A stretch of DNA of 41,124 nucleotides. It comes from Bacteroidota bacterium. Its GTDB lineage: Bacteria; Bacteroidota; Bacteroidia; Flavobacteriales_D; JABDKJ01. The position numbers were made by a program, and so were the translations under genes. Below the pieces are notes generated by a model that did no database searches, was not told the origin of the DNA, and was given only the letters and a program-made list of their open reading frames with translations. Shown here piece by piece: positions 35,519 through 40,104 of the stretch; position 1 is the stretch's first letter, and every line of letters begins with the position of its first letter. The stretch is from the NCBI GenBank assembly GCA_024279715.1, contig JAJRRH010000154.1:1-41124 (forward strand), written 5' to 3'.

Positions 35519-37834
35519 CTAAAATTTGAAACTTACACCTCCCAACAAATTAAACCCTGCTTGTGGGTAATACCCAACATATCCCGGCCCCCAATATCCA
35601 TTGGATTCATATTCTGCATCTAAGATATTATTAAGCAGTAGTGAAAGATTGATGGACTTAAAAGTGGTTTTTGGTTTGATCGTATAATTAATACTAACAT
35701 CATTGACAAGGTATGAATCCAACTTTGATAACGGTGCTTCAATATTACCCATAAATTGTTCGCCTACATATTTAGTTAGGAGGGTTATCCAAAGAGAATT
35801 TACTGGATTGTAAGCCAATCTATTTCCAGCGATTATCCCTGGAGAGAAACTAATTTTTGTATTTCCTAACTCTTCTAAGCCATTTTCGTTGGACGTGAAA
35901 AAATTTATATTCTCGTTTTTGCTTAATGTGATATTTGGAATAAAATGTAGTCTCTCATGCAATACAAAATTCGCATCGAACTCCAATCCGGCGCGGTATG
36001 ACTCTCCTATGTTCGTCTTGACAGGAGCTCCCGTATCATCTAATGCACCAGTTAGCACCAATTGATTTTTATAATTCATAAAGTAGGTGTTGACATTGAT
36101 TGCTGATTTGCCTATTTTAACTCTATACCCCAATTCAAGATCGCTCAATTCTTCCTGTTTAGGGTTTCCATTTTCATAGTCATTTCGACTAGGCTCTTTG
36201 TTTGCCAAAGCATAGGATATGTATGCTAGACCTGATTTAGTTTTGTACGAAAGACCGACTTTTGGATTGAAAAAACTGAAAACATCTTCTATTTCATTTT
36301 CGGCTACACCACTTGCATTATAGCGTACGTTTCTCAATTGAACATCAGTAAATAATTGTAACTGATTACTAAAGCTATAAGTGTTTTTCCAGTAAATGTT
36401 TTTCTCCGTTTTGTTTCCAAAAAAATCATAATAACGTTCTCTTATATCCGCTCCGAAAGTTATTTCTGCCCATATAATTTCGCCAAAATGGTCGCCATTA
36501 TATTGATTAAATGAAAACCCTAAGATTGATTCTACTTTTTCAGAATGATAGGTTACGGAAGTAATTGCTCCATAGAAGTTATTATTTAGCCATTTTCTCC
36601 GGATTAAGTCTGTCATTCCAAACTCACCTACAGGAGCATTGATATAGTCAGTAATATTCTCATCTTGTTTATACTGCTCATAATACCCCCTACCCCAAGT
36701 ATAATGTCCTGTCAAATTGAAGTTGAAGTTGTCATTTATTTTTTGGTTAAGTAACAACTGATAGTGATCCTGGCTGTAGTGATCGACCTGATTGTCATAA
36801 TATAGAACGTTGCCATCATCATCATAATGCTCTCCAGCGAAGTTATGTGTACGATCACTCGCCAAGGTCTCAGGATCTACGCCATACCATGCTTGATACG
36901 TTTCCTCCAATCCACCAAAAGCGAGGGCCTTTATCATTGTATTTCCTTTATTGTAGGATAGCTGGGTGAAATATGAACTCAAATCGGAAGATGCTCTATC
37001 GATATAACCATCTGATTTTATTCTTGATAATCGTCCGATGAAATTAACACTGTTATTGAGTAATCCTGAATCAAATTTTAGACTTGCTTTTCGTGTGTTA
37101 AATGACCCTGCTGAAGAGGATATTTCCACGCTTGACTCGTTCGATATTCCATCCGTCAATAGGCTTAGATTGGCGCCAAAAGCGCCTGACCCATTAGTGG
37201 ATGACCCAACACCTCTTACCAACTGTACGTTTTCAACGGAAGAAGTGAAGTCTGGCAGATCGACCCAATAAGTGGTTTGACTTTCCGAATCATTGTATGG
37301 CACACCATTGATGGTGACATTGACACGAGTAGCATCACTGCCTCGCACACGCATACCTGTATATCCAACACCCGCTCCCGCATCAGAAGTAGTGACTACA
37401 GAAGGTAGGTAATTTAGAAGAATCGGCAGATCTTGCCCTAGGTTTCTCTCAGATAATTCACTTTTACTTAGTTCTGAAAAAGACATAGGACTTGTCTCTT
37501 TTTCTCGGATGGCAGAGATTAAAACTTCATCCATGACGTTCACACTAAAGATTAGTTTTATGTCTTGTTCAGTATCTTTTTCTATTTGGATAGTGATAGA
37601 ATAGTCATCATATCCAATACGTGTTGCATGAAGAGTATGACTGCCTTGGCTTACTTCAATCCTGTATTCACCGTTGGCGTTCGTTAAGAGGTAGAATGAC
37701 TGATCATCTAGGTTAATTGTAACATCTTCTAATGGGTCGTTTTGGGCATCGGTGACAGTTCCATAGATCGTGAATTGCGCTTGTGAAACAAAGGTCACAA
37801 ACAATAAGAGTAGGGTAATAAAAAGACTACGCAT
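35519..37834 (-). CDS. TonB-dependent receptor, probable thiamine (precursor) uptake
   Basis: NLGQDLP.LL..LPSVV.TSDAGAGVGYTG.RVRGSD..R.NVTING.P.ND.ES plug and terminal YYPQAG.N..GGVSFKF. It lies directly downstream of a TPP-class riboswitch. Start set at ATG 37834 (MRSLFITLLL). Confidence 0.9.
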   Translation of the reverse strand: MRSLFITLLLLFVTFVSQAQFTIYGTVTDAQNDPLEDVTINLDDQSFYLLTNANGEYRIEVSQGSHTLHATRIGYDDYSITIQIEKDTEQDIKLIFSVNVMDEVLISAIREKETSPMSFSELSKSELSERNLGQDLPILLNYLPSVVTTSDAGAGVGYTGMRVRGSDATRVNVTINGVPYNDSESQTTYWVDLPDFTSSVENVQLVRGVGSSTNGSGAFGANLSLLTDGISNESSVEISSSAGSFNTRKASLKFDSGLLNNSVNFIGRLSRIKSDGYIDRASSDLSSYFTQLSYNKGNTMIKALAFGGLEETYQAWYGVDPETLASDRTHNFAGEHYDDDGNVLYYDNQVDHYSQDHYQLLLNQKINDNFNFNLTGHYTWGRGYYEQYKQDENITDYINAPVGEFGMTDLIRRKWLNNNFYGAITSVTYHSEKVESILGFSFNQYNGDHFGEIIWAEITFGADIRERYYDFFGNKTEKNIYWKNTYSFSNQLQLFTDVQLRNVRYNASGVAENEIEDVFSFFNPKVGLSYKTKSGLAYISYALANKEPSRNDYENGNPKQEELSDLELGYRVKIGKSAINVNTYFMNYKNQLVLTGALDDTGAPVKTNIGESYRAGLEFDANFVLHERLHFIPNITLSKNENINFFTSNENGLEELGNTKISFSPGIIAGNRLAYNPVNSLWITLLTKYVGEQFMGNIEAPLSKLDSYLVNDVSINYTIKPKTTFKSINLSLLLNNILDAEYESNGYWGPGYVGYYPQAGFNLLGGVSFKF

Positions 37835-37866
37835 TGTTAGAAAAAAGTATGTAGGAGTACATTCAT

Positions 37867-37946
37867 CAAAATCCCTTTCAAGCATTATCTCGACAGGTTC
37901 AATGGGTATAATCTCAGCCCTTGTATTGAAGGCACCCCTGGGTTTA
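37867..37946 (-). ncRNA. TPP-class riboswitch (variant)
   Basis: Minus strand GGGGTG-CCTT-CAATAC-AAGG-GCTGAGA-TTA-TACCC-ATTGAA-CCTG-TCGAG-ATAATG-CTTGA-AAGGGA. Promoter-like TACCTTCG at 37955-37962. Confidence 0.9.
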
Positions 37947-38105
37947 TGTAGCGGCGAAGGTAAGGTTTTTTTGTTTGAGAATTTTTTTTCCGAATAGTCG
38001 AACTTAAGGAATCTCTTTTTGCGCTTCGCATTCTTTCCTTCTAGGGTTAATTAAATGGGGGTTCGACGGTTCTATCTTAAAAATTTGCGGCAAAAGAACG
38101 ACGGC

Positions 38106-39148: not shown

Positions 39149-39523
39149 ATGAAAAAAGTGACTTGCGTACGATTAGAAGCTAACGAGAAACAAATTCAAC
39201 GATGCCATGAGTCTATTCGCCTTGTTGAAGTCCATATTATTGAATTGGCAAACGTTCTGAATCTTGTTGGAAATGCTGTTCGACTCAAAATAGTGTATTT
39301 ACTGCATGCTGAAAAAGAATTATGTGTATGCGATATAAGCGATGTGCTACAGATGAACGTTTCGGCCATCAGCCAACACTTAAGAAAATTAAAAGATGGC
39401 GACCTTGTCACAGCCAAGAAGGAGGGGCAAACAATTTATTATTCGATAAAAGAGGATTATAGAAAGACGCTTTCTCCGATTTTTAGGCAGATAAATTCAC
39501 TGAAAAAAATGGAATTGGTATGA
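39149..39523 (+). CDS. ArsR/SmtB family metal-sensing repressor
   Basis: RLKI..LL, ELCVCDI, SAISQHLRKLK..LV...K.GQTIYYS, plus N-terminal Cys residues (TCVR...QRC). Confidence 0.93.
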   Translation: MKKVTCVRLEANEKQIQRCHESIRLVEVHIIELANVLNLVGNAVRLKIVYLLHAEKELCVCDISDVLQMNVSAISQHLRKLKDGDLVTAKKEGQTIYYSIKEDYRKTLSPIFRQINSLKKMELV

Positions 39524-40104
39524 AAAAGGAAAATGCGGTTTTAGGCTCGGGTGTTATAGCAGCGTTAGCAGCATCTTCTTGTTGTATCCCACCTGTGGTT
39601 GCAGCCATAGCGGGAATTGGAGGTGTCTCTTCAGGGCTTTCCTGGATGGAACCCTTGCGCCCCTATATGATTGGTCTGGCTGTAGTTTCTATCGGCTACG
39701 CTTGGTATGACCACCTTAAACCCAAAAAAGAGACGGATTGTTGCCCCTTAGAAAAACCAAAATTTTATCAAAGTCGAAGTTTTCTCATTGGTATCACACT
39801 TTTTTCTCTAATCTCGATTGGGTTTCCATACTTTACAAAGGATTATTTTCCAGAGAAACTAACCAACGACACCATCGTTACGACGGAAGAAAATATGGAG
39901 GAAAAGCGAATTGAAATAGAAGGAATGACATGTGTAAGTTGTGAGCATCACATGAATACTGCACTAATGAATTCAGACGGTGTAATAGAAGCTTCCTCAT
40001 CTTTTGAAGAAGGATATACAAACGTACGATATGACAAAACCAAGACTGACTTAGAAACACTTAAAAAGCAAATCGAGAACGAAACTGGCTATAAAACAAA
40101 ATAA
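39520..40104 (+). CDS. merTP: Mercuric transport protein, MerT-MerP fusion
   Basis: MerT part AASSCCIPP...EPLRPY...DCC with 3 TM helices, fused to an HMA domain GMTCVSC. Confidence 0.88.
   Translation: MKKENAVLGSGVIAALAASSCCIPPVVAAIAGIGGVSSGLSWMEPLRPYMIGLAVVSIGYAWYDHLKPKKETDCCPLEKPKFYQSRSFLIGITLFSLISIGFPYFTKDYFPEKLTNDTIVTTEENMEEKRIEIEGMTCVSCEHHMNTALMNSDGVIEASSSFEEGYTNVRYDKTKTDLETLKKQIENETGYKTK

Follow-up and report, generated by a model that had tools for sequence, protein, structure and literature searches.

The window analysed here, a stretch of 41,124 nucleotides (nt) on contig JAJRRH010000154.1 of a Bacteroidota bacterium (assembly GCA_024279715.1), carries on its minus strand an aptamer of the thiamine pyrophosphate (TPP) riboswitch fold, Rfam family RF00059, in front of a gene for a TonB-dependent receptor. 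In this aptamer the internal loop with A61, C77 and G78, which in Escherichia coli thiM is a 3x3 junction, is swapped for one extra base pair and a G.A mismatch. The remodelled arm had been noticed in a sequence-only reading of the window. The observation was confirmed, and it is far more general than one window. Judged from alignments and covariation, the closed arm marks a conserved subclass of the TPP riboswitch fold, common in Bacteroidota. With about even confidence we hold that the element is a working thiamine-family riboswitch of this subclass, which would turn down the gene of a TonB-dependent thiamine importer when the vitamin suffices.

The RF00059 match spans 37855..37949 (minus strand, model positions 1-105) with 41.5 bits and E values of 6.5e-7 in a search of 401 bases and 9e-7 in the whole genome. 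The span of 37867-37946 given earlier lies inside this match; the strand is minus. The curated gathering score of 54.3 bits is not reached. Therefore, a default Rfam scan of the whole window at gathering threshold lists nothing. The aptamer is the sole RF00059 match at E<=1 in the window's genome, which is a draft with a completeness of 71.6% in 207 contigs. Rfam families besides TPP did not match the aptamer, neither at gathering threshold nor at E<=10 around the element. The pyrimidine-sensor half (37904..37938, minus) is intact as had been claimed; all letters listed for it are present and it aligned to the Rfam consensus with high posterior probability and every conserved letter kept. P2 is formed by GGG 37938-37936 and CCC 37906-37904, the P3 hairpin comprises 37933-37917 and the T-loop UGAGA, within CUGAGA, is at 37916-37912. 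The other arm consists of a 3-bp P4 (CCU 37897-37895 with AGG 37876-37874), a G at 37894 and an A at 37877, and a 5-bp P5 (UCGAG 37893-37889 with CUUGA 37882-37878) capped by the loop AUAAUG (37888-37883). This is a UAAU-type L5 loop, and its docking on P3 is predicted. A trailing GA follows at 37873-37872. The aptamer is thus placed before a gene of the thiamine-transport type: the presumably regulated receptor of 771 amino acids (35519..37834, minus, start codon 37834-37832) has Pfam matches to CarboxypepD_reg (6.1e-13) and Plug (2.1e-12) and is located 37 nt downstream of the aptamer. The upstream gene is ribF. Homologues of the receptor family were found behind TPP-type aptamers at 92 further loci.

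The remodelled arm (37874..37897, minus) was defined from the sequence, the Rfam alignment, covariation and a second genome of the same genus (locus L022). The canonical comparison in the sequence-only reading was right. The E. coli K-12 thiM leader, read directly, has GAU before and CGU after a 4-bp P5 and likewise the loop AUAAUG; in the Rfam consensus AU and CG are the conserved junction letters. The Rfam alignment of the window aptamer has one deletion in the joining segment J4/5 and one in J5/4. The remaining junction letters, U 37893 and A 37878, pair together, whereas G60 is kept. The claimed loss of junction bases and extension of P5 was borne out: UCGAG/CUUGA forms five pairs (U-A, C-G, G.U, A-U and G-C), and the extra pair covaries in 63 distinct arms. 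Between P4 and P5 a single G.A mismatch (37894/37877) remains, adjoining the U-A pair of P4.

How widespread is this architecture? We defined the closed arm by CCUG, a 5-bp P5, a 6-nt loop with UAAU and an A before AGG, lacking the AU...CG junction letters. The window's arm, the first row of our alignment A1, has all these features. We searched 41 genomes of one order, that of the window and 40 relatives, with RF00059 at E<=0.01. Matches were present in 40 of these 41 genomes, and the arms of all 45 matches were read. As the sequence-only reading had proposed, J4/5 and J5/4 could be tabulated among relatives: the arm was closed in 17 of the 45 matches and canonical, with two junction letters before P5 and CG-N after it, in 25. 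Single matches were intermediate (L010, one letter before P5 and CGU after it), odd (L027) and spurious (L175, 27.8 bits). The odd one, a 44.6-bit match in a genome of about 1.5 Mb, fits neither form; its P4 does not start with CCUG and its junction letters are GAA and GA. A 504-residue open reading frame (ORF) downstream of it had no Pfam match at 1e-5. In the window's family of eight genomes all eight real RF00059 matches were closed. The closed form also occurred in six further family codes of the order, three of which contain genomes with the canonical form as well.

An exact-pattern scan for the closed arm over species-representative genomes yielded at least 120 loci. A T-loop motif was found upstream in 118 of the 120 pattern loci listed, and 110 of these 118, among the matches listed, are from Bacteroidota. 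Among the matches listed these distribute over Flavobacteriales (59), Saprospirales (18), Marinilabiliales (9), Bacteroidales (8), Cytophagales (1) and Chitinophagales (1), with 14 in no named order; the non-Bacteroidota loci listed are four Betaproteobacteria of the Gallionella kind, one each from Verrucomicrobiota, Actinomycetota and Acidobacteriota, and one without name. The canonical AU...CG junction letters occurred in none of 147 arms parsed. Some arms were ambiguous: for L043/L157, L178 and L066 (CGCAG with CUGCG, CGCGG with CCGCG) one reading is a closed arm and the other a P5 of 3 bp which keeps C77-G78. L088, L089 and L193 (CA...CG) look canonical with a short P5.

As the letters around P5 were prescribed by the scan pattern, only the ten positions of P5 itself are unbiased in the pattern set. 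In the 63 distinct arms of alignment A1 the outermost P5 pair was CG in 19, GC in 15, UA in 9, AU in 8, GU in 5 and UG in 2, and unpaired in 5. Over the whole arm 97.8% of cells were paired, compared with 78.7% in 500 shuffles, none of which came as high, and 33-62% with a slid partner. The base opposite G60 was examined in the pattern-free order sample; of the 17 closed arms 16 have A there and one has U, whereas canonical arms have A, C, G or U at this position. Since the outer pair covaries and a near-invariant G.A adjoins it, the alignments argue that the closed arm is a selected structure, a covarying pair of free identity beside a fixed G.A. The gathering score was reached by only 2 of 33 closed aptamers scored (L016, 57.0 bits; L197, 60.4 bits), the rest having 29.9-53.7 bits. 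Hence, standard annotation misses nearly all closed aptamers.

The remodelling could be an artefact, i.e. a sequencing or assembly error at the junction positions, or the element could be a decayed, non-functional remnant of a TPP riboswitch. The former must be considered as the window's genome is a draft in 207 contigs, yet we assign it a negligible probability. In L022, the other genome of the same genus, the 26 nt of the arm are identical to those of the window, although the P1 region, the P3 loop and the leader are not. Three runs of one study yielded contigs without a difference in 37855-37949, two of which deviate in the flanks by 3 and 12 letters; because these runs may include the source sample, they lend only weak independent support. 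Moreover, cultured isolates carry the same architecture. The identical arm in L022 together with the three-run contigs excluded an error as the sequence-only reading had envisaged it. The decayed remnant appears very improbable as well. In its favour are the score under the Rfam gathering threshold, a P1 that is broken in the Rfam alignment and the precedent of predicted TPP aptamers in diatoms that are reported not to regulate (PMC9544697). However, no fewer than 118 loci keep the form, and the arm shows compensatory changes; strains that deviate in the flanks have the same aptamer, and a complementary anti-aptamer segment, described below, is conserved in the genus. Covariation in the arm and conservation among relatives contradict decay. 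In one of the runs, X1, a separate low-depth contig of 329 nt matches only 37902-37939, the P2-P3-T-loop part, and is dissimilar on either side of it; probably it belongs to the aptamer of a different organism in the same sample.

Next we considered the genes served by closed aptamers. Among the matches listed, 74 ORFs downstream of pattern loci comprised 66 TonB-dependent receptors, 6 ThiC, 1 ThiE and 1 without Pfam match; this receptor bias comes partly from the dominance of Flavobacteriaceae in the pattern scan. In the order sample a receptor was downstream of 14 of 17 closed and 13 of 25 canonical aptamers, thiC or thiS-thiC downstream of 3 of 17 and 6 of 25. The remaining canonical aptamers preceded thiD (2 of 25), a pnuT-type gene (1 of 25) and genes not named (3 of 25), each class 0 of 17 for the closed form. 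The three closed aptamers before thiC or thiS-thiC (L019, L021 and L025) are each the only real match of their genome. Listed by genome, a closed aptamer as the only real TPP-type match precedes thiC in G031 and in Ferrigenium, thiS-thiC in G003 and G005 and, in G053 (L099/L194), thiS with thiE behind it. Labilibacter has an ambiguous arm before thiC, a closed arm before a receptor and no canonical match. In Labilibacter marinus we also noted, some 1.4 kb upstream of the thiC leader, a match to the SAM-II riboswitch (L178, 3022-3081, minus strand) that scores 67.6 bits against a gathering score of 44.

A FastTree phylogeny was calculated from the N-termini of 93 receptors; 76 of these follow closed aptamers and 17 follow aptamers labelled canonical, the latter including the ambiguous L066 and the intermediate L010; by the manner of collection this set is enriched for closed forms. 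The receptors constitute one family in which the labels are interleaved, with 9 changes, at least 3 of them forced by well-supported branches, versus 15.8 in shuffles. The sequence-only reading had suggested that a shifted specificity would suit control of an outer-membrane vitamin importer. That the closed form specifically suits an importer did not hold: the receptors behind both forms are one interleaved family, the canonical form precedes 13 homologous receptors in the order sample, and closed aptamers are also found before thiC and thiS. Therefore, placement before an importer does not distinguish the closed form.

Thiamine metabolism was inspected in five genomes of the window's family which have the receptor-linked form (G000, G001, G002, G004 and G006); the window's own is 71.6% complete, the others 93-100%. 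ThiC, ThiE above cut-off and the catalytic domain of thiamine pyrophosphokinase (TPK) were each found in 0 of 5. ThiL was present in 5 of 5, as was a permease of the PnuC/PnuT type, the gene of which adjoins the riboswitch-receptor unit in 3 of 5. By this gene inventory the cells look like auxotrophs for the intact vitamin.

The leader of the window's receptor gene permits a proposal for switching. An anti-aptamer segment (37853..37865, minus) is complementary to the 5' strand of P2/P3 (37939-37927) and may have a regulatory role. The duplex of the P2 strand (9 nt) and the leader, with the complement at 37860-37853, was calculated at -11.6 kcal/mol (z -3.35, 100 shuffles); in the same-genus leader L022 the corresponding values were -15.6 kcal/mol and z -4.37. 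Over 80 leaders the mean z was -1.3, with 41% below -1.5. In the unconstrained minimum-energy fold of 37945-37835 (-24.6 kcal/mol) 37939-37932 and 37930-37927 pair with 37865-37862 and 37860-37853 and the P4-P5 hairpin is kept. A weak terminator-like element is predicted at 37841..37862 (minus). It consists of a 5-bp hairpin AUGUA-CUCC-UACAU (37862-37849) and six U (37846-37841), seven bases ahead of the start codon. At the matching place the hairpin of L022 is stronger and has a U-rich tail. A possible promoter element at 37955..37962 (minus) has 5 of the 6 specified letters of what we take to be the Bacteroidetes -7 motif, and relatives have perfect matches at the same distance. A sigma-70 consensus promoter scan reported 0 sites; Bacteroidetes promoters lie outside its coverage. 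In the absence of ligand the P2/P3 5' strand (37939-37927) would pair with 37865-37853 and the leader would be read through. With ligand the aptamer would hold this strand, and the freed segment could fold into the short hairpin followed by six U, which just before the start codon might stop transcription or hinder initiation. We infer that the leader is an OFF switch acting by attenuation or hindered initiation.

Other leaders have elements of their own. Receptor leaders of Flavobacteriaceae (e.g. L060, L073, L098, L036) share an element some 30 nt ahead of the start codon which is composed of an A/U-rich stretch, GCCCCUUUU, and a hairpin UUCGUAA...UUACGAA with its 3' strand running into the AUG. 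The C-run of this element is complementary to the G-run of the aptamer, and the element has the appearance of a conserved expression platform that acts on translation. Many receptor-linked aptamers (e.g. L158, L159, L177, L008) have a conserved AUCUCAAA just before the G-run, where the window lacks it. As AUCUCAAA is complementary to UGAGAU of the T-loop, it could hold the pyrimidine pocket shut without ligand.

What does the closed aptamer read? Its pyrimidine pocket (P2, P3 and T-loop) and the L5 docking loop are canonical. Our proposal is that the ligand enters by its aminopyrimidine ring and bridges both arms, and that its phosphate end may be recognised in another way, through the G.A site and metal ions, or scarcely at all. 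Such an RNA would most likely answer the pool of thiamine phosphates in the cell, of which TPP is the major one, while depending less on the pyrophosphate than a canonical TPP riboswitch. That closed aptamers still report this pool through a remodelled or relaxed phosphate site has, in our judgement, an equal chance of being right or wrong. Free thiamine is not an intermediate of de novo thiamine synthesis, and therefore a feedback sensor on this pathway should read a phosphorylated end product. The evidence points both ways as to whether closed aptamers do the same job as canonical TPP riboswitches; their solitary position before thiC or thiS and the interleaved receptors would fit a common job.

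A number of points weigh against this proposal. In the solved thiM structure G60, C77 and G78 are reported to contact the pyrophosphate-holding metal and G78 to touch the pyrophosphate directly (PMC3764141); hydrogen bonds of C77 and G78 to the pyrophosphate are also described (PMC7824784). Mg2+-mediated TPP binding reportedly needs A61, C63, C77 and G78, and engineered or selected thiM aptamers with A61 alone or A61, C63 and G78 altered lost the thiamine response (bioRxiv 10.1101/2025.01.21.634073). Because those mutants stopped answering thiamine, an RNA without A61, C77 and G78 may bind TPP poorly. P1 of the window aptamer is poor, with 4 of 5 Rfam P1 pairs non-standard. A constrained fold gave only a distant helix, probably upstream of the transcript start; by eye, an interrupted 3+3-bp helix of 37948-37943 with 37871-37869 and 37866-37864 is possible. 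The minimum-energy fold of 37965-37815 was no more stable than shuffles (z 0.02), a measure that is uninformative for an aptamer with tertiary structure, and a consensus terminator scan which needs three G-C pairs did not report the hairpin before the U run, which has one. Furthermore, both forms can reside in one genome. When whole genomes of 15 pattern loci were searched with RF00059 and the arms read, 7 of 15 had both: Flavobacterium araucananum, Maribacter sp. X9, Aquimarina sp. SS2-1, Saccharicrinis aurantiacus, Mesonia aestuariivivens, Anaerophaga thermohalophila and a metagenome-assembled Bacteroidia genome (L086). In all seven a closed aptamer is directly before a receptor; the canonical aptamers are before thiC (3), thiM (3) or thi4 (1), or are tandem partners (2). 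In two leaders a closed and a canonical aptamer stand in tandem before a single receptor gene, and their order is opposite in the two. In L086 (1152-1533, plus) the closed one (1152-1246, 48.1 bits) precedes the canonical one (1437-1533, 63.4 bits), in A. thermohalophila (L149/L190, G051:C22:75848-76159, minus) the canonical one (67.8 bits) precedes the closed one (60.4 bits). Between the G-run and the beginning of P4 the two L086 aptamers are identical but for 1 of 45 positions, whereas several positions of the arm differ. This is how two different specificities or affinities would look.

These points suit a shifted specificity, which the sequence-only reading had brought up: closed aptamers would be a separate ligand class that prefers thiamine or thiamine monophosphate (TMP), or is blind to the phosphates, with TPP rejected or weakly bound. 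We consider this possible without calling it probable. The pyrophosphate-contacting bases are lost and, as the replacement is conserved and covarying, it was selected rather than drifting; each of the two tandem leaders found combines a closed with a canonical aptamer, and receptors make up 66 of the 74 downstream genes mentioned above. At the importer such an aptamer would sense the transported substrate itself and, beside or in tandem with a canonical aptamer, afford two-signal control, an option to which we give the same tentative weight. Yet the closed form is the only thiamine riboswitch before thiC or thiS-thiC (L019, L021, L025, Ferrigenium) and thiS (G053), homologous receptors are found behind 13 canonical aptamers in the order sample, the receptor bias is in part that of the scan, and in the order of A. 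thermohalophila (41 genomes, its own included) its own tandem pair was the only one. A distinct phylum-wide class that reads the thiamine moiety without the pyrophosphate, be it free thiamine or all vitamers alike, appears somewhat doubtful to us. A third idea, also raised from the sequence, is a sensor of precursors or breakdown products which binds only the aminopyrimidine part, i.e. hydroxymethylpyrimidine (HMP), its phosphates HMP-P/PP, aminomethylpyrimidine (AmMP) or formylaminomethylpyrimidine (FAMP), with the receptor importing such a compound. In its favour, the pyrimidine pocket is intact and the distal one gone, and the specificity of the receptor family, 'omr1', is called unclear (PMC12442306). 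Nevertheless, the idea is improbable. Without ThiC and ThiE above cut-off in any of the five family genomes the cells could not use a pyrimidine, and ThiL and the PnuT-type permease, in all five, fit uptake of the whole vitamin. Because the cells look like auxotrophs for the intact vitamin, a pyrimidine precursor is disfavoured as cargo or signal and is unlikely as a ligand in this organism. In addition, the L5 loop and the full P4-P5 arm stay conserved, which would be superfluous for a binder of the pyrimidine only.

How does the closed form relate to known systems? With E. coli thiM and RF00059 it shares the three-way junction fold, the P2-P3 sensor with UGAGA, P4 of CCU/AGG, G60, the UAAU-type L5, the trailing GA and the placement at thiamine genes. 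It differs in that J4/5 and J5/4 are one base shorter per strand and that the letters A61, C77 and G78 have given way to a covarying pair and a conserved A opposite G60. By gene arrangement the locus resembles OMthi (BT2390) and PnuT of Bacteroides thetaiotaomicron, i.e. a TonB-dependent receptor behind a TPP-type aptamer with, in relatives, a PnuT-type permease nearby. OMthi and PnuT are reported to take part in thiamine uptake, and the transporter transcripts to have changed little with thiamine (PMC5613172). B. thetaiotaomicron pairs pnuT with a pyrophosphokinase, whereas the TPK catalytic domain was found in none of the five genomes of the window's lineage. Marine surveys name the receptor omr1 and place it near TPP riboswitches in Flavobacteriales, with unclear specificity (PMC10881298, PMC12442306). 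That TPP riboswitches precede outer-membrane receptors and PnuT in Bacteroidetes was already known. The HMP-PP riboswitch (thiS motif) is likewise a second class in thiamine metabolism and is described as reading a relative of TPP rather than TPP, but its fold, a small aptamer embedded in a terminator, is unrelated (PMC6478431); its model did not match in the window at gathering threshold or around the element at E<=10. Variant riboswitches such as 2'-dG-II, the flavin mononucleotide (FMN) variants and the xanthine and 8-oxoguanine variants of guanine riboswitches are a parallel; there, too, letters that contact the ligand have changed within a parent fold that is retained, and this change is conserved (PMC5473149). 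Those variants are rare with shifted gene associations, whereas the closed-arm form is common in a phylum and keeps the gene set of its parent. In the article texts searched we found no description of a TPP aptamer with closed J4/5-J5/4. A systematic search for variant riboswitches was reportedly made by Weinberg et al. in 2017 (PNAS).

Apart from the thiamine locus, the window contains at 39149-40104 (plus) a gene for an ArsR-type helix-turn-helix regulator followed by a gene for a fusion of MerT and a heavy-metal-associated domain, a small pair for the handling of mercury or other metals.

No riboswitch class is more widespread than the TPP riboswitch, which is also a drug target. To our knowledge, its pyrophosphate pocket is regarded as nearly universal. 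A natural form that is common and lacks this pocket would mean either a second structural way to read TPP or a new ligand specificity in vitamin B1 metabolism. The mixed tandem leaders of L086 and A. thermohalophila are ready matched pairs of aptamers. As only 2 of 33 closed aptamers scored pass the gathering score, surveys of B1 uptake based on RF00059 miss the closed loci; one such survey reports Bacteroidota populations without known systems for B1 transport or synthesis (PMC10881298). Should the closed form turn out to be a pyrophosphate-blind class, it would be the first natural riboswitch for unphosphorylated thiamine, hidden by a score below the Rfam threshold. The tandem leaders would then in some cases constitute a natural two-aptamer gate, and the importers of Bacteroidota would gain a sensor for the transported vitamin itself, beside the canonical TPP sensors.

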